Assembly (NCBI GenBank): GCA_029717555.1
Contig: JAMDHS010000002.1
Span: forward strand, 310,001-374,000
DNA: 64,000 bases
Direction: 5' to 3'
Source: Peribolospora baueri
Taxonomy: Eukaryota
In this document: in pieces, positions 3,360-14,900 of the stretch
Numbering within the stretch: the stretch's first letter is position 1
Layout of the letters: each line of letters starts with the position of its first letter
The notes under the pieces: generated by a model
Told to the model about the DNA's origin: nothing
Databases searched by the model: none
What the model saw: the letters and a program-made list of their open reading frames with translations, nothing else
Translations under genes and position numbers: made by a program

Positions 3360-3388
3360 GACTCGGACTCGGACTCGGACTCGGACTC
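3360..3388. repeat. (GACTCG)n hexanucleotide microsatellite
   Basis: gactcggactcggactcggactcggactc read directly. Confidence 0.85.
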
Positions 3389-3577
3389 ATCGCCTCCCTG
3401 CTACCACCACTCCTTCGCTATCACCATCCCGCGACACCTCCCCGCCCCCCACCTTCTCTTCGTCCGCCTTCACTCTTTACCAACACCCCCGCGCGCGGAC
3501 GCCGTAGCTGTCTGTTCAAGCCCAGCAGACCAAAAGCCCAAGCCCAAGCCCAAGGGAGGCCCACGCACGCACGCGCC

Positions 3578-4367
3578 ATGACCGTCTCGTCCGTCCGATT
3601 CCGAGGCACACCCCCCGTCGTCGTCCGGCTGGCCGGACGGGCGTTGGACGAGCTTTTGGTGCCGAGGGACACGGACACGAAGGAGGCCGATAAGTGAGTC
3701 CCCTCGTTTTGCCATGCCGTCTCGTTTCGCCATCGTCTTAGACAGTACACGCGCTTTCGCATGTCGGACGGCTGACCTAACGGACCATCGCACTTTTCTT
3801 TGGCACGCACACACCTCGCAGTAAGAAAAGCCAAGCGGAGCACACCAAAAAGGTGACCATCATCGGCATCGTTGGTGAGTGAAAGCCCGCTTCCCATACC
3901 CTGCCCCGCCCACTCCTGACCTCCTTCCTCCCATTTCAACGTCGTTCCCTCTCTCCAACGCCCCACCAGTCGGCTGCATCGCCGCCGCCCTCATCCTCCT
4001 CGCCCTCTTCCTCTACTTCCAACGCCGTCGAGGCGAGCGTCAAGCCCGTCGACGCAGGCTCGCCGCCGGCTTTGCCACGGCCCAAGAGGAGCTCGCGTAC
4101 CAGCAGGCCAGGGAGGAGGCCGAGGGCGATGCCGAGCTGCCTTGGTTGCGCGCCAACAGGAGTCGCAGCGTCGCCGCTTTCCCGTCTGCTTCGGACAGCG
4201 GGTTCGTCGGCAACGGAGGAGACCATCCTGGCACCGGTACTGGTCCCCGTGCGCCGACCATTAGATCGGACTGGGAGAGCGGCAGGCAGGCATGGAACGA
4301 GGAGGGTAGGCCGCCGCCGGACTATCGCTCCGCCGCTCTTGGAAGGCCTGCACCCGGCCCGATCTAG
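3578..4367 (+). CDS. Single-pass membrane protein with C-terminal PPxY motif (paralog A)
   Basis: Exons 3578-3693, 3822-3874 and 3970-4367 with GT-AG introns splice in frame: MTVSS...LVPRDTDTKEADNKKSQAEHTKKVTIIGIVVGCIAAALILLALFLYFQRRR...LPWLRANRS...PPPDYRSAALGRP. Confidence 0.75.
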
Positions 4368-5080: not shown

Positions 5081-5842
5081 CGGTTTGCGGTTCGGTGCGA
5101 AATCCGTATTCCGTATGCTGGCATGCGGGCATACAGGCACTTCTTTCCTTCGTCCGGTCAGTTACGTCTCCTAATATCTTTACCGGTAACGGATGTAAGG
5201 GGTGGACGTGTACGTGTACGTTCGTTTACACAAGCGCGGGCTAGGGCGGTGGTTGTCCTTTTTTTTTTTTCGGGCTGCGCGGACGATGGTGATGGCGGGG
5301 GCGAAGGGCGTGATGGTGATGGTGGTGGAGGACGAGGGCGCGACTGCGAGGGAGGGGGACGAGAAGGGGGGAGGTGATCCCGTGTGCGTGTGGGCGATGG
5401 CGGGGCGAAACCCAAATCGAGTCTTCCTTCCTTGTAGGACCGCTCGTTCGGCACTGCCGACGGCGAGAACGGCGAAAGCGCGCTTTCGAGCTAACATTTA
5501 TCATACCGGCATATATGTAGATGGATGGCACGGAGTAGATAAAAGAGCAGAGAAGAGCGCGTCCGGTTAGGAACTACAGTACAGCGGCCACTCGGGCAGA
5601 GAGCATATTCGGCGGACGAAGCGGCGGCGAGGTCAGAACCCCAACTCGGGCCGGCTCCCAAGTCGCCGCCGCTGCTGCCATGGGTGGGAAGCGTCAGCGC
5701 GTCGGCCAGCTCGCTCGTCCTCCTCCGATGGTGGAGGCTGTCGCGCTTGGCCGCCGCGGAGGGGAGGGCGCCGTCCAAAGTCGAAGAACGGAAGGAGAGG
5801 AGGGAGAAGGAGGAGAAGAGAGAATCTCTCGGGGAGGAGAGC

Positions 5843-6753
5843 TCATAGGCACGGGGAAAGGTGGAGTAGGGCGGGCTGGCCGTGTCCGTCGCGCTGTGAC
5901 GGGAATGGGACCGCGGTGGGGAGCAATGCGAAGGTGAGTGAGATAGCTGGGTCGGCGGGCAAAAAGGGAGGCGGCCGGTCGTCGTCGTCGTCGAGCGACA
6001 ATCGGTCCCAGGAAGGCCAGCGCGGCGTGCTCTCGTCACCGTGAAGCGACGGACTGGCAGAGAAGAGGACGACAGGCCTGCCGAGGGCGGCCATCTCGTA
6101 CGTCGGCGGAGGTACGCCTCGGTCGTTGAACGCCTCCCGGCCGCTCTCGGCATCCGAACAGACGCTCGTCCTGCGCACCCGTCCGCCTCGCTCGGGACGG
6201 TCGACGAGCGAGCGAAGCATGTCGTCCATGGTTTCCACGTTTCCAGAACGGTTGGGCCGGAGCCAGGGCAAGTCCTCGTCGCCCATCTCGTCGTCCCAGT
6301 GACAATGTCCGTCGCCTCCGGAGGCTGCTGCCAGCTTGGCCTTGCGCTCTTCTGACCGGCGCTGGGAATAGAGGGCCACGACGACGACGAGGGCGGCGAA
6401 GATGACGCCAACGACGATGGCGAGGATCATGACGTAGCGATGGCTCGGAGGACCGCGGTCTCTGACGCGATTGAGGGCGGCCGAGAAAAAAAAAAGACGA
6501 GGAAGAATGGCGAGAGTGGAGGCAAAGTTAGCCAGACCGGTCGCGGGATCGACGCAGAGCTCGGGTCAACCAGCTGGACAGCTGATCCATCGTCAGCATG
6601 GCCCTGCCAACGGCGGCTCCACATCCCCTCTACGCAACCTCCCTCCTCTCTCCATTCGATCGACAAAGAGGTAAAAACTCACGCGTCCTTACCCAATTCA
6701 TGGACGCCGTCCCTTGCGGCCAATGATGTCGGCTGTGACAGCGGAAGCGGCAT
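5843..6753 (-). CDS. Single-pass membrane protein with PPxY motif (paralog B)
   Basis: ORF 5843..6430 (MILAIVVGVIFAALVVVVALYSQRR...LPWLRPNRS...PPPTYEMAALGRP) extends to a CAG acceptor at 6462-6464 with CTAAC branch and pyrimidine tract. A GTGAGT donor at 6682 links in phase to exon 6683-6753 (MPLPLSQPTSLAARDGVHELGKD). The first exon is less certain than the main exon. Confidence 0.7.
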
Positions 6754-8158
6754 CCACATCCGCCGCCTCCTCCTCCTCGCTACCACTCGTCCGATCCCCA
6801 GCAGCGCCTCCATGCGCAGACCCTCTCCTCCCCTCCGCCCCCCGCCCGCGCGCGTCTCCATCGGTAAACTCTGCCTCCTCGCCGACGAGCCATCCCTCCT
6901 TCCACTCCGCCCTGCACGACGGGCACGTTCCGTGCGTTGACAAGTAGCGCGAGGCGCAATGGTCGTGTAGTCGGCAGGAGCATCGAGGTGTCTTGCAGGC
7001 GACGCCCTGGGGGCAGGTACGTTGGGGTGCGAAGGAACAAGGTGCAAACAACCACGTCAGACGGTCGTCCAATCCTGTCATCGTCGCTGCCATCCGATGC
7101 CACGCCGCCGGGACGCACCTTGGTCAAGATGTCCATGCAGAGCGTGCACTCGAGCACGTTGTCCTCGTATTCGCTCTTGAGGTACGATTGGAGCTCGAGG
7201 ATGGCGCGGGAGGACAGCGAGTAGAAGCCTCGGCTGGTGGGACGGAGGAGAGGAGCGCGTCAGGGATTCGCGAACCGGGAAGCAGAGGGTCAAAGGGCGT
7301 ATGGAGGCTATCACTCCACTCACCGGCTCTTGATCAACCACCTCCTCCTGACCAAGCTGGTGAGAAGCGCCTCGGCGGAGGCCTTGGTCATCGGCGGGGT
7401 GAGACGGGAGGACTGGCTGAGGATGGAGATAGCGGAAGCAGAGAAGGCTTCGTTTGGGGCGGTCATGATGAGCTCGATCTAATGAGGTGGGACGAGGAAA
7501 CGAATAGGATACGAGTTCAGTCGTCCATGGGCAGGTGCACGACCGTGTATGAGGTGAAGAGAAGAGAGACGTACGATCTTCTTCACCATGGCGAGCTCTT
7601 GCGGGGAGTATTCCGAGGCCACTTGGGCGATCTCGTCGCCTTTTGTGTTTACCTGTCGGAGTTCGAGCGGACGACGTGGGAAGTGGGGAAGGGCAGATGA
7701 GAAGGGTGAGAGACTCGCTGAATTCAGTTCGTTCGTTCATCGTCGCCCCACACGCGGTGACGAAAACCTAACTCAAGTGCGCCGCGCCTCCGGCACACTC
7801 ACGAGAGCGAGAACGGGAAAACCATGAACCTGGTCTACGAAACGACGGATCTCGAAGCCGAGAGGAGAGATGGAGCGGTTGACGGTGTCGAGGAAGGAAG
7901 GGAAGGCGGTCGGTGTGTAGGGCGCTGCGTCGGAGGGATTCGGGGAAGAGGGGGGAGAAGACGGCGGCTCGTTGGTGTTCGTCTTCGTGACCCCATCCAT
8001 CCATCGATCCCATGGCCTCGGCTGGGCGCCGGTCGGGAGGGCTCACCGTCACAGAGCTTGCAAGCCCTCTCGTGCAGCGCTTTGGCGTGCTTCTCGGCGA
8101 GAGAGCGATGCGTGAAGACGGCTTGGAGCCAGAGCTTGCGGGCCGTGCTTTCGCTCAT
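6698..8158 (-). CDS. NSE1: Smc5/6 complex non-SMC element 1 (winged-helix + RING-like)
   Basis: N-terminus RKLWLQAVFTHRSL. C-terminal RING variant spread over exons: LECTLCMDILTK / GVACKTPRCSCRLHDHCASRY...CPSC...W. Confidence 0.85.
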
Positions 8159-8925
8159 CCTATCCGATCCGGTCCTAATAAGATGAAGGGGAGGATCGTA
8201 TGGGAGGAGCGGGGATCGAGGACGCGGGTGCGCGTTGATGAAGGTGCGCGCTGATCAAGTGTACACGAGTATGCGATTATGCGAGTACGCGGGTACAGGC
8301 GTCGTCGTATAGCAGGCGCACCTGGATGCGACCGCGGAGGAGAACGCCGACTGCGGCTGCTGCGGCTGGTCGCAGGAGACGTAAGGCGTTGTATGCTGTA
8401 TGTTGTATGTTGTACGTACATGGGGCGACTAATGAGTGTTAGGTACGGTATACGGACACGCGCGCACGTACACGCAGGTCTTGGCCTGGCCAGTGAGAGA
8501 GAGCGTGGAGGCGGCGGCGCTGGTCTGGATGCCTTCAGTCTCTCCGTCACGCTTCCATCCATCTCGTCGTCCATCCATCACCCGCTTAGCGGACGACCAC
8601 CACGACGACCACGCCGACCGCATCCACATCCACTTCTTTCAATTCCTCCACTTCCCCTTTCGCTTTTCTTCTCTCTGCTCCCCCTCGTCCGTCGTTGCCG
8701 CTCGCTCGCTCCCCCTCGCGGCTGGCCTCGCAGTGCGACCCGTCGGCAAGAAAACCAGGCCAAGGCCCCCCCGCGCGTTTCCCACCGGCGTCACCACCCC
8801 TCGAGATCGCCAGTCACGACAACGTGGTGGAGCAAGAAGACCAAAAGCCCCCGGCGTCCGCGTCGACGACGAGCGTAGCGCACGCGAGGGGCGGCCGTCG
8901 GCGCATCATCCCCTAGCCGAGGAGG

Positions 8926-11900
8926 ATGCAACCTGTCGACGAGGGGCCGGAGCGCCGCCAACACCACCACCGACGGCTCAGCTCACGCAAGGAGAACCCC
9001 CAAGGTCGGCCTCCGCTCGACGAGCCGCCACAGCCGTCGTCGTCGTCGTCGTCGCTGCCCACGTCGGCCGCGGAACGTCGCCGCGACGCAGACCACCACC
9101 ACCAACGCCAAGATCAACAGCAGGGGCAGGAGCAAGACCAAGACTTAGGTCGAGAGCAACCATCGCATCGTCACCTCGGCCTCCGTACTCGCTCAAAGCC
9201 CGAGAACCCCGTCACACCCAACACCTCCACCTCCGACCTCTCCTCCGTCGCCTTCGAGAACTCCCCCCCCCCTCCTAAGCGCGCCTCTGTGGCCGTCTAC
9301 CACCAGCACCCCCGAGACATCGCCATCGCCGCCCGCGTCAGGTCCAACGGCGCCCTCTCTACCGTCGCCTCATCGGCATCCGGACCGCATGCCTCCGTCG
9401 TCGAGCCCTCTTCCCCCTCCGCCGGCTCGACGTCCACTCGTCATCCCAAGTCTCCATCTCTGCCTCCCATCGATCCAGACATTCACACACCCCTCTTCGA
9501 CGAGGCCCTCGACCCCTCCTTCACCTTCCCTCAATCTCCCGTCGATCCCAGCCCGCCCGCGTCCGCCTCCAGCCCGTCGGCCAGGTCCGGTCAGGCCAGA
9601 GCCTCGGTCGCCTTCGACGACACCGCCGCGGACGACAAGACCGTCCGCATGGTCGACCCCCAACCCCCCTCTCCCCAATCCCGACGACGTGCACCCTCGC
9701 TCCATATCTCCCTCCAGGCTCCCGTTCTGACGTCCCGCTTCTCCGCCTTCTCCTCCGTCAATCCCTCCCCCACCTCTGACCTCCCGCCTTCCTCCTCGTC
9801 TTCGAACAGCCAAGAGCGTGACGCGCTCGTCGCTTCCACCAGACCACCCCATCGCTCCACCCTTTCCGGCATGCGGGCCTCCGCCGCACGGGATGGAGAC
9901 GGCGCGTGCGCCGCGCGCTCCATCGCCGGTCTTGGCCTCGGCTTGCCCTCGTCCCTCTCCGCCCCCGCCGTGGCGCAGGTGTCTCTGGAGGAGCAAATGG
10001 CTCGAGGTCGAGAAGACGATGTCGATGCCACCGACGATGCGCCGAACAGGGAGGATGCGTCGCCAATATCCCCGTCCCGCGGAGTGTCTACAACGCCAGA
10101 CCCGCCCCCCTTTTCCTACGACCGCTCGCGTCAGATCGGGCTCGGACAGCTGGCGACGCCCCGTTGGCACTTTTCCATGTCTGACCATCCGTGGCCCGCA
10201 AGCGCTTCTAGGTCGGCAGCGCCACGGACGTCGGTGGACCAGCAGCCCTACTACGCGACGACCCACAGCGGGCCACCCTCCGCTTCGCTCGCCACCCTCG
10301 ATGGCGCGTCGTCCCGCCAGGCCGAGGCTTACAGGCATGGACGCTCCATCTCCTTCTCCGCCTCGCCCGCCCAACCCGTCGGCGGCGGCGCCGCCGGTCG
10401 CCCCCGCCAGGCGAGCGTGGCAGGTCCTGGCGCCATTGGAGCCATCGTCTCGGCGGGCGCAGACATGCCGCCCTTGCCCGTCTCCACCGGTATCGCGGCC
10501 TCGACCAGTCTGTCGGCCGTCTCTGCGCTCTCCTCTCTCGCCCGCGGATTCCACTCGTCTGATACCGGCTATGACCTCATGTCCGAACTGCACGAGTACG
10601 CCTCCGGCACGAGGGACCTCCTCTCCTCCCCCACCTACTCCATCCAGGCGCTTTCCGTGTCCGACTCAGAGTCCATGACCATTGAGCCAGAGAGCCATCC
10701 TCCTTCGGCAAAGACGGACACCTTCCCCGGTCACCAAAGCAACGGGGCAGGCGAGCGTGCCGCTGCTATCGCCGCGGAAGGAGTTCGGTCGGGTACCGGC
10801 AGCACGTTCCAGACGGCGGACGAAGGCAGCAGCAGCACCGCGACGCACGGCTTGCACTCCGCTTTTGGCGTCGGCGTCCCGCGAGCCACTGAGCCGGTCC
10901 ATCTCGCCGGCCTCGGCCTCGATACCTTGGACCACCGATCTCAGCCGCCTTCTTCGTATCGCGGCGATCCTTTCGGCCGTGGCGACGCCATCAGCAGGTC
11001 GTCGTCGAACATGTCTTCCAGGAGTGAGAGGACGAACTCGAGGAAGAGGTCGGGCGACGATTTCGCTGCCGCCGTCGCTGCTCCGGACCAGACTTCCACT
11101 TCTGCTACCGTAGCCCAGCAGCCGTCGCCGTCGCACGAGTCGTCCGTTTTCAGGACGAGCTTTGACCTTAGTGCGGCCATCGCTGAGCTCTCCAAGGGCG
11201 ACGGAAGCGGGAGCGAAGTCGGCTCGCCGAGCTTGGCGAAGCGCCGCCAACCTTCGCCTTCCAAGGTTAGCCGGCGTGCTTCGCTCGGGCACAGCAAACG
11301 CACGAGCATGTCTGGCCCGACGCGTCACAACACCGCGACCGGCCACGGCCGGTCACCGTCTTCGTCGTCCGTTTCCGCGTTCGCTTCCAAGACGGCCGGC
11401 GACCTGCTGAGCTCGAGGAGCGAGCCGCCCGACTCACCCGCCCGGAGCCCGCTTTCGCTTGACAAGTCGCCCAACGCTGCCGCCAATCGCCGCTCGCGTG
11501 CGCTGTACCCTACGCCGCCTCACACGGCCAGCGGCATGCCCGCTTCTACCACCACCGCCGGCGCCGGTCCGCAGTCGCAGTCTTCGCAGCGTCAAGCTTC
11601 TCGCTCGTCGGCCGCGTCCACCCACTCGTCCTCGCGTAGGCGTGTGTCTACCGCCAGCATAGGCGCATCCATCCTCCGAGGCTCGCTACCCTTCGGCGTT
11701 AGCGGCGAGTTCGAAGGCCTCTTTCTCGACGGCGCCGACATTTCTGGCGAGGGAGACGCGGCTGAAGCGTTGCGCAAGTTGGACGGTCTCGGTTCGAAGC
11801 CCAGCCCGAGGACCAGCAGGGACGGCTCTGGCGGTCGACCCGGAAGCAGCGGTAGGCCTGGAAGCAGCGCCGGAGCGTCTTCGAGGAAGCCTGGCAGCGC

Positions 11901-14900
11901 CGGCAGGGCTAGGACGCCAGGTGGCACTGCGAGCCGAGCTGGATCTCCCGCGGGGAGGAGGAAGAGCGCCGACGCCAAATCAGCCGCTATCGCTGCGGGC
12001 GCTCTCGTCGAGGAGAAGCAGCAGCGCAGCCGGAGTCGGGCGAGCGTCGTGGGCGTTTCCCGTTCCTCCGTGTCGAACGAGCCCAGGACGTCGTCCGTGT
12101 CCTTTTCCTCGGACGCGGCTAGCCCTTCTCGGGCGAACGGGCAACATACGAGCGCGCACCGCAGTCCGCCCTCGGCGGCAGTGTCTGCCAGTTCGCTCAC
12201 GCCCACCAACAAGAAGCCTCCGACTTCGTCGACGCGCTCCTCGACGCCTCCCAGCGCCGTCTCCACCAACACGGCCTCGACGAAGCGCACCTCGACGACC
12301 TCGTCCACGAGCATGACTCAGGGCGGCAACGCGTCTTTTCGCGACTCGACCTCACTCGCAACGAGCATCTCCACTTCCTCCCTCGCCTTTCTTCCTCGTT
12401 CTCCCATCACCAAGAACCGCAGGGGCAGCGGCGGGAGCGAGGCGTCGTCCGTGTACAGCGTCGAACCTTCCAAGAGTGGTGACCGTGGCATGGCCGGTGT
12501 CGTGGCAGGCGAGGGTTGGGAGGAGGGTACTTCGGGTCTCAGCCACATTCCTCCCGTGCCTCCCTTGCCCAAGGCTTGGGAGTCCTCGAGACCCTCCACC
12601 TCTTCCGGCCCCGGTTCCAACGCCGGTTGGAATGCGGTCTCTACGGCTCCCACCATCTCATTCCCCAGTGAGAATCGCATCGATGAGGCGTCATACCGGC
12701 AGATCTCCTCGTCGCAGCCCACATCTCCAAAGTTGTCGTCGTCCAACACCACCTCTTCTGCTTCTGCGCGCTTGACAAAGGCGCCCAGCAAGAAGTGGAG
12801 CCTCTCCAATCTCTCCATCCATCGCAGCCCCGGTTCTTCCCAAAAGGCGCACCGCAACGACGCAAAGCAAATCCAGGCCCATGCCCAGGCTGCGTCCGGT
12901 CTCTCTCCGGGTAGATCCGATCCTTCGAGGAGCCGAGGCTCTCTATCTTCTGGCCGAGGCTCTCTATCTTCTGGCATTCGCTACGGGTCGAGTGATGGTC
13001 GAGGGGTGGGCAGCCCTCAGCCGGTGTCCCCCTCTTCCGGCACGTTAGCGAGCATGCATCCTCCTCCCATGCCTTCTGTCGACGCTGCCGGTAGAGCCAC
13101 GCCTCGGACGCCCAAGACTGCTTCCACCTCTTCCCACCCTGGCAGCCCCCGAGGCTCGACCATGACCACCACGACGACCTCCGGCGGTGGTGGCGCCCCG
13201 CTGAGCCCGCGTAGCCCGCGCAGCCCGCGCAGGACGCCATCCGGCATTCCGTTCTTCTCCCGCAAGTCGTCCTCGAGTAACATTTCCTCCGCTTCAGGGA
13301 AAGACAAAGACAAGAAGAAGGACAAGGACGAGGACGGATCGGTGGTCAGCGGTAGCGGCGCTCGGGCCATCACGCCTTCTGGCCGATCTGGCTCCCGCAA
13401 GTCCATCATCGGCATCAACATTCCCGCCCTGCTCAAGTCTGGAGGCGGCGGCGGAGGATCTTCCAAAAAGGATAAGGACAAGGACAAGGGCGTGCAATCC
13501 CCCCGCGTTTCGGCTTCCACCGCCGCCGGTCTTTCGCAGCGCCACCAGCAGCAGCAGGAGAAGGGCGTGGCGAGCGAGTTCGGACTCGAACTTCGGAGCG
13601 CCAATCGAGCCTCCGTCATCGGCGTCCCCGGTCGTGGCGCATATTCGGCCGCCAAGGCGAACACCGTGGGCGGCAAGGACAAGGATAGGCCTCCACCTCC
13701 GCCCTCGTCGTCGACGACGACCACCAAGGAGAGCAGGCGGGCCAGCGTCAGTAGCACGTTGTCGCTCATGGGCAGGAGGCGGGGCAAGGTGAGTTGGAGA
13801 TGAGAGGTCGGCGTGCAGTCGTCGAAGAATCGACCCAGCCGCTTCCTTTGACAACGTTCTGCGACCGATGCTGACGAGCGCCGTTCCTTTGCCATTCCCT
13901 TTCTTCCCTTCATCCAGACTTTGCCTTCTTCTACTGATCCTCCAAAAGTCAAGCCGGTCAATTTACCGCCCATGCAGATGTCCGCCGAGCCTTCGAACCT
14001 GAATCGAAAGCTTCAGCCTTCGCCTTCTTCTACGGCCAGGACAACGCGGGCGTCTATGCAGCCTTCTCCTCGTTCGGAGCACGTCGGACCATCCTTCGGC
14101 ACCGGCACGGGTGCCTCTACCCTACGCTCCGTCCAACGCGGCTTGCCCACCATCAGCGCCTCGCCAGCCATGTCGTCCGGGCCGTCTCCTTCTGGAGAAG
14201 GCGATTCGGGAAGCATGTCGAAGGACCCTTCTCCGCGCCCCGGTACGTCGCCCTCGGTCGGTCAGACGCCCACGAGGATCCCGCGCATCGCGAACAAGGT
14301 CACTCCTCGATCGACGACAAGCAACAACGCTACCGCTCAACCGCCCGCTTCGACGATGCCCTCCTCGGGATCTGGTAACCTCCGCCGCCTGAGCGCCTCG
14401 TCCAACTATGTCGCCGCTTCGCTGTCCGCCTCGATGCCCCCGAGCAAATCCAACCCTTCGTTAGCCTCCAACTTTGGCTTCAACGGCGGCGGCGCGTCCG
14501 GCGCGCTTTCCGACGATGAGGCGACGCCCACGGCGCAGACGGAGGCGAGCAAGACCGCTTCGTTGTACGCAACGCCGCCCACCACGCGTCGCAAGTCGCT
14601 CGCCATGTCCACCTCGACCTCTTCTACCGCTGCTTCCGCTTCGGGTCACTCCTCGGCCTCAAAGGCCGGTACTTCTTCGGTGCTCATCCCCATCCTCAAC
14701 TCGTATGCCGCCGCCAAGACGTCGGCAGATTTGGAGGAAGTGAGCAAACAGGCCAGAAAGGCTGCCGCCGCTTCCGGGGTCTCTCAGAGCGAATGTGACG
14801 TCTTACTCAATCTCGCCAGTCGGAGTGAGCGGCGGCGGGCTGAAAGTCTCGCCGCAACAGGAGCCAAGGCTACCGACGTGGCCACACCGACGAGCACGAT

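Follow-up and report, generated by a model that had tools for sequence, protein, structure and literature searches.

On the minus strand of a 64,000-nucleotide (nt) stretch of Peribolospora baueri DNA (contig JAMDHS010000002.1 of GenBank assembly GCA_029717555.1, forward-strand positions 310,001 to 374,000; this whole stretch is called the window below, and positions are counted from its first letter), the open frames of two neighboring genes have 56 nt in common (6753–6698), which they read in two different frames. The upstream gene is labeled NSE1 from the order of its recognizable parts, and the downstream gene, which we have named B, is predicted to encode a small single-pass membrane protein with a PPxY motif. 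In the reading that we favor, and that we hold to be slightly better than an even bet, B would be a two-exon gene with a transcription start site inside NSE1 and an ATG in use in its first exon, so that at least 56 nt would be read in two frames. The 221-nt intron on which this reading depends, at 6682–6462, is in all likelihood real, judging from its signals and from the intron of a paralog. The surrounding DNA is GC-rich and eukaryotic, with short introns that run from GT to AG.

An earlier sequence-only reading of this stretch had placed the stop codon of NSE1, the ATG at 6753, a GTGAGT donor, a CTAAC branch site, a CAG acceptor, and a 221-nt intron with an in-frame join, and had counted 56 nt as belonging to both frames on one strand; every one of these coordinates holds (Table 1). 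Splicing from 6683 to 6461 creates a single open frame of 229 codons that ends with the TGA at 5845–5843. The donor lies only 16 nt past the NSE1 stop (TGA 6700–6698), so any use of the intron entails a first exon that overlaps the final part of the NSE1 coding sequence. The frame of this exon holds further ATGs at 6759, 6813, and 6861, and all four of the minus-strand ATGs found between 6892 and 6702 lie in it; the overlap would reach at most 164 nt if B were to start at the ATG at 6861. A donor GTAAGG at 6692 was tried and rejected, as it leaves phase 1 and meets a stop after the acceptor (read by eye from the sequence), and so was a fusion protein of NSE1 and B through the donor at 6682, because the NSE1 stop precedes that donor.

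The intron itself has the features expected of its surroundings in several respects. Its GTGAGT donor is the commonest one locally, being used in four of the seven neighboring introns, and its 5′ half is richer in purines (0.58) than its 3′ half (0.31), as in NSE1 introns 1, 2, and 5. A distance of 66 nt separates the branch-site A from the 3′ splice site, and the sequence between the branch site and the acceptor contains no AG. Five ATGs are present in the 6698–6431 region (6701, 6655, 6624, 6599, and 6590), and four of these belong to the proposed intron and would be lost with it on splicing. In the overlap (6753–6701, 53 nt), GC content at the three codon positions is 0.67, 0.56, and 0.71 when read in the frame of B, and 0.71, 0.67, and 0.56 when read in that of NSE1; of the two, the former shows the pattern usual for coding sequence, which is only a hint, as some 18 codons are too few to decide.

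The second exon of B encodes a transmembrane (TM) helix at residues 34–55 (6433–6368), with a 19-residue Kyte-Doolittle maximum of 3.39 at residues 34–52, followed by a conserved LPWLR.NRS block (6271–6245) and a PPTY motif at residues 142–145, within 6112–6098. A tblastn search of the window with the product of this exon found a single relative, a gene on the plus strand that we call A, with an expectation value (E) of 4e-13. In the part that can be aligned, 44% of the residues are identical, and the two proteins have in common the TM helix, a basic stretch, the LPWLR.NRS block, and the PPxY block, which in A reads PPDY (residues 172–175); the Kyte-Doolittle maximum of A is 3.04. B continues for about 80 residues (5843–6095, minus strand) past the end of A, after an AALGRP block found in both, and this additional tail, rich in proline and aspartate, is absent from A. 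A GACTCG microsatellite of about five units lies at 3360–3390 (plus strand), some 190 nt upstream of the A start codon.

Gene A provides a direct comparison for the B intron. Its first intron is a phase 2 intron with the same succession of signals, GTGAGT..CTAAC..CAG. The junction codon precedes the IVVG common to both TM helices by 16 residues in A and by 15 in B, and both introns have phase 2. The sequence-only reading had equated the phases of these introns, and the present comparison agrees with it, adding that their positions fall within one codon of each other; one codon is also the resolution of the comparison, as the alignment of the juxtamembrane residues is weak. The second intron of A splits the TM helix and has no counterpart in B. 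Exons 2 and 3 of A contain no Met, so the first exon of A must be coding, and a coding first exon is the architecture of the family.

The same reading had described A and B as an inverted duplicate. This stands at the protein level, on the identity and tblastn values given above, but not at the DNA level, where the best blastn match between the two regions is 11 nt and no relic of the duplication was detected in exon 1 or the intron. The identity of the proteins, together with the lack of DNA similarity, indicates that the duplication is old, and an unused relic of that age would not be expected to retain perfect splice signals. Runs of at least eight T occur only five times in the 64 kb, both strands counted, and two of them flank B, a T12 at 5259–5270 (plus strand), in the spacer where A and B converge, and a T10 at 6495–6486 (minus strand), in the proposed intron. 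Also within that intron, at 6667–6620 (minus strand) and shortly after the NSE1 stop, the linear frame of NSE1 holds a 16-residue stretch with 11 residues identical to residues 85–100 of the exon-2 product of B (6208–6161); its tblastn E within the window is 0.19, and it may be a product of chance or the relic of an internal duplication.

The frequency with which such a configuration arises by chance was estimated from shuffled and reversed sequence. A complete solution was defined as an ATG, an open frame from it to a donor, an intron of 50–400 nt, a branch motif 10–80 nt from the acceptor with no AG between them, and a join in frame with a fixed downstream open reading frame (ORF). Strict signals were GT[AG]AGT and CT[AG]A[CT], and the region tested was the 576 nt upstream of the ATG at 6430 (7006–6431), the first Met of the open frame that contains exon 2. 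Among 3000 dinucleotide shuffles of this region, 3 gave a strict and 68 a loose solution, and a set of 20,000 gave 46 and 500, respectively. Loose configurations with an acceptor no more than one codon from 6462 and in the same phase appeared in 13 of the 20,000. When all ATG anchors of the reversed window were used, strict solutions were found at 1 of 1049 and loose ones at 21 of 1049, while strict signals without the frame condition were found at 21 of 1049; restricting the anchors to those with 100 open codons after them left none of either kind (0 of 61 each). In the real sequence, the strict test returns a single coding solution, which is the 6753/6682/6462 model.

The exon-plus-intron configuration of B is unlikely to have arisen by chance. 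What the sequence-only reading had put forward together, a join in frame, canonical signals, and a phase in common with A, stands well above chance by both the shuffles and the reversed window. The intron of B is probably the same inherited intron as the first intron of A, and the agreement in phase and position, taken with the 13 of 20,000 shuffles that reproduce it, is the strongest argument for this common origin.

The other partner of the overlap is a six-exon gene for which we built the model listed in Table 1, with introns of 122, 150, 96, 90, and 112 nt. The label NSE1 is a reasonable one, given that its pieces, in exons scanned singly, match in colinear order those of Nse1, which is the RING-like subunit of SMC5/6 (PDB 7dg2, 9lwi; Pfam PF07574, PF08746). 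Exon 2 matches positions 40–69 of the Pfam SMC_Nse1 profile (PF07574) with 18.6 bits, which is under the cut-off of 23.3 for an exon scanned alone. The sole match of exon 4 in a PDB search is to residues 107–153 of the NSE1 homologue 7dg2_A, at E 0.24. The last exon matches the Pfam zf-RING-like profile (PF08746) with 28.8 bits against a cut-off of 26.6, and spans only profile positions 11–43. With single exons rather than the spliced protein as queries, a protein search with the last exon and a search with exon 4 at E ≤ 10 found no orthologues, and a metagenome scan matched 597 pattern stretches, of which 0 were confirmed.

The tail that follows the zinc finger of NSE1 is 66 residues long, compared with about 18 to 30 in two solved homologues, as judged from where the matches end (229/247 and 236/266). 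The final 18 of these 66 residues are the ones that overlap B, and the tails of the solved homologues are shorter. The sequence-only reading had NSE1 running to its stop at 6698 in the last exon, which we can support: the exon contains no donor of the forms GT[AG]AG[TC], GTACGT, or GTGCGT at which it could end earlier, so the frame runs straight to the TGA. The donor of NSE1 intron 4 (7323, minus strand) has phase 2, as does the acceptor at 6462, and a transcript that skipped NSE1 exons 5 and 6 would, on paper, link the winged-helix part with the TM/PPxY exon without a change of frame; nothing points to the occurrence of such skipping.

A number of observations weigh against the overlap. All four ATGs of exon 1 (6753, 6759, 6813, and 6861) have a pyrimidine at −3, while the ATG at 6430 has G at −3, C at −1, and A at +4, which is the start context of A. 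The length of 221 nt compares with 90–150 nt, and the branch-to-acceptor distance of 66 nt with 26–50 nt, in the seven neighboring introns. A CT-rich tract lies 50–105 nt upstream of the ATG at 6430, similar tracts precede the start codons of NSE1 and A, and the pyrimidine tract of the proposed intron fits the core promoter of a gene starting at 6430 equally well; the 159 nt before that ATG are free of ATGs. A protein begun at Met 6430 would start with the TM helix and keep the PPxY motif and everything else that A and B have in common. From the same donor, a competing branch site, CTGAC at 6596–6592, with a CAG at 6584–6582, would remove a 101-nt intron and lead to a dead end after 28 residues. 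The likeness that the sequence-only reading saw between the exon-1 peptides of the two paralogs (LAARD and LVPRD) is not significant, as its best local score of 14 is reached by 4262 of 5000 shuffles. Lastly, the case was chosen from a 64-kb window, and the chance rates need to be multiplied by the number of genes viewed, which we put at a few dozen without a count; after this multiplication the strict chance rate stays, by our estimate, at a few per cent. The 101-nt alternative intron (acceptor 6584–6582) is nearer the local length range and may represent a non-productive alternative splice.

These observations can be arranged into different accounts of B. The intron could be real and the first exon non-coding, in which case it would be a 5′ untranslated region (UTR) intron, translation would start at the ATG at 6430, and the two transcripts would overlap without any bases being read twice. 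The better context of that ATG, with its G at −3 like the A start and in place of the −3 pyrimidines of exon 1, and the unlike N-terminal peptides of A and B fit this account, and so does the composition of the leader: a start site within 6752–6702 leaves the ATG at 6701, in the third frame, as the sole upstream ATG, and splicing would give this ATG an upstream ORF of 17 codons, the TGA of which, at 6429–6427, overlaps the ATG at 6430 (ATGA), compatible with reinitiation. We nevertheless consider a non-coding first exon unlikely, since the homologous intron of A interrupts coding sequence, since the one frame of three that continues into exon 2 holds all four ATGs, and since the strict signals that occur alone at 21 of 1049 anchors of the reversed window occur at only 1 once the frame and ATG condition is added. 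Still somewhat less probable, in our judgment, is a single-exon B without any intron, for which the 268 nt from the NSE1 stop to the ATG at 6430 would contain the 3′ end of NSE1 and a core promoter rich in CT; the likeness to splice signals and the upstream ATG in frame would be coincidental. The placement of the CT-rich tract as before the NSE1 and A ATGs, the lack of ATGs in the last 159 nt, and an intron length and branch distance outside the local range all agree with such a gene, which is also what we expect an automatic gene caller would most probably report. It would require, however, that the full configuration had arisen by chance, at 0.1–0.2% for strict and 2–2.5% for loose signals, and that it had done so at the site homologous to the A intron, as only the 13 loose configurations in 20,000 did; and A, the other member of the family, requires an upstream coding exon.

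B could also be expressed from a read-through, bicistronic RNA made from the NSE1 promoter, with the 221 nt as an intron in the NSE1 3′ UTR. The spacing of the genes invites this idea, as there is no room between NSE1 and B for a conventional terminator and promoter, and a report on a mushroom-forming basidiomycete gives read-through RNAs that carry at least two ORFs of the same strand for 7.9% of transcribed loci (PMC4503453). Those transcripts likewise join tandem genes on the same strand with a spacer too small for separate transcription units; as that report describes them, however, their ORFs are free of overlap, with stops in all frames between them, whereas NSE1 and B would share bases. 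The survey covers Agaricomycetes rather than fungi of the smut lineage, and makes no mention of Ustilago (PMC4503453). In addition, a ribosome translating NSE1 would pass the ATG at 6753 before terminating at 6698, which would put B out of reach of ordinary scanning or reinitiation. B RNA would more likely come from a start site within NSE1, and we regard a read-through origin as very improbable.

The two-exon reading of B with a coding first exon, which we prefer, implies a simple sequence of events, in which the splicing, the transcription start, the choice of ATG, and the function of the protein are all proposals. A separate transcription start within the NSE1 gene would give rise to a B pre-mRNA, from which the 221-nt intron at 6682–6462, the positional and phase homologue of A intron 1, would be removed. 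Translation from an exon-1 ATG (6753, or one in frame with it up to 6861) would then yield a short and poorly constrained luminal or extracellular N-terminus, the TM helix, and a cytosolic tail, whose PPxY motif may recruit a ubiquitin ligase of the Rsp5/Nedd4 type. We hypothesize that the overlap is tolerated because both of the pieces involved, the NSE1 tail beyond the RING-like finger and the N-terminus of B, are sequences under low constraint.

A and B are predicted to be small single-pass membrane proteins with a cytosolic PPxY, the orientation being suggested by the basic residues that follow the helix. This layout recalls Rcr1 and Rcr2 of Saccharomyces cerevisiae, described in one report as membrane-anchored adaptors of Rsp5 with one predicted TM domain and cytosolic PY motifs (P/L-P-x-Y) that bind WW domains (PMC7401822). 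As portrayed there, Rcr1 and Rcr2 are a paralogous pair, as are A and B, each of which has one TM helix, a basic stretch, and a tail with PPDY or PPTY in a conserved block. A and B do not belong to that family by sequence, and the likeness is one of layout alone. Pfam includes an RCR model, and a scan of A and B against Pfam at E ≤ 1 gave only chance-level matches (LapA_dom, Syndecan, Anthrone_oxy, and MSC) and no RCR model. By analogy, the two proteins are candidates for membrane-anchored adaptors of a Rsp5/Nedd4-type ubiquitin ligase.

No orthologue of B was found by a word-indexed protein search with its exon-2 product. A search of 1.84 billion representatives with a profile hidden Markov model of A and B gave one match, to a 2533-residue protein in seven stretches at E 2.8e-4, which we take to be low-complexity noise; a metagenome scan with the A and B alignment matched 181 pattern stretches, of which 0 were confirmed; and the ESM Atlas returned only unnamed fungal clusters, with scores of 0.90 or below and low recognition. 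By these searches, A and B form a lineage-restricted pair of PPxY membrane proteins without detectable relatives.

Terminal overlaps between the coding sequences of independent tandem genes on the same strand are common in viruses and bacteria, and are rare but known in eukaryotes. The proposed arrangement of NSE1 and B resembles that of such compact viral or bacterial genomes; the overlap would be short, at 56 nt and at most 164 nt. Eukaryotic nuclear genes with dual-coding regions have been described, for example in the mammalian 'ARFome' (PMC1868773). The two cases would be alike in that nuclear DNA is read in two frames of one strand to give parts of two proteins, and they would differ in that the overlap of NSE1 and B links the 3′ end of a gene with the 5′ end of an independent neighbor, while the mammalian frames lie within one transcript. 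A literature search, in which papers were judged by their titles and the openings of their abstracts, returned no fungal case of a same-strand coding overlap, which is not a claim that none is in print. The overlap of NSE1 and B is a probable further case of a known phenomenon.

If the junction is real, it would provide a clean and small fungal example of independent nuclear genes whose ends overlap in dual-coding sequence. It would also mean that a disordered protein tail can absorb the start region of a neighboring gene, and that a promoter sits inside a coding exon of an essential genome-maintenance gene. Eukaryotic gene callers forbid coding sequences that overlap on the same strand, and B would therefore be annotated in truncated form from Met 6430, or missed.

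A more far-reaching possibility, which we put forward tentatively and think is considerably less probable than the two-exon reading by itself, is that the overlap arose by overprinting. Two unrelated nuclear genes would then have 56 to 164 coding bases of one strand in common, a Rsp5-adaptor-like B would have its promoter and its first coding exon within the last exon of NSE1, and the last 18 residues of NSE1 would represent a read-on into the ancestral first exon of its neighbor. One stretch of DNA would in that case serve NSE1 as its coding tail and B as its promoter-proximal region, its 5′ UTR, and the coding sequence of its N-terminus, and the two genes would be mechanically coupled in their expression.

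Table 1 Coordinates of gene B, its overlap with NSE1, paralog A, and the NSE1 gene model in the window.
Feature	Positions	Strand	Description
B exon 1 (proposed, coding)	6753–6683	minus	ATG 6753; 23 codons + 2 nt (71 nt); phase 2
Candidate dual-coding segment	6753–6698	minus	56 nt; last 18 NSE1 codons + stop; first 18–19 B codons, different frame
B intron (proposed)	6682–6462	minus	221 nt; phase 2; GTGAGT 6682–6677, CTAAC 6531–6527, T10 6495–6486, CAG 6464–6462
B exon 2	6461–5843	minus	Juxtamembrane residues, TM helix, LPWLR.NRS block, PPTY, tail; TGA 5845–5843
Alternative B start, ATG 6430	6430–6428	minus	First Met of open frame 6565–5843, right at the start of the TM helix
Paralog A	3578–4367	plus	188 amino acids; exons 3578–3693, 3822–3874, 3970–4367
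NSE1	8158–6698	minus	Six exons, 296 codons/amino acids, 5 GT..AG introns (gene model built here)
NSE1 exons 1–5	8158–8047, 7924–7803, 7652–7575, 7478–7324, 7233–7119	minus	Gene model
NSE1 exon 6 (last)	7006–6698	minus	Second half of RING-like zinc finger, then 66-residue acidic/glycine-rich tail

Two further open frames in the window may be mentioned. At 156–1349 on the minus strand, a long open frame has a Met at a hydrophobic stretch of about 22 residues and a tail rich in proline, tyrosine, and glycine; it has no Pfam match and no tblastn similarity to B, and its layout of a TM segment followed by a proline-rich region resembles that of B. At 8917–13803 on the plus strand, a stop-free frame of 1628 codons lies head-to-head with NSE1; its product is serine- and proline-rich, and a Pfam scan of the first 528 residues found nothing.

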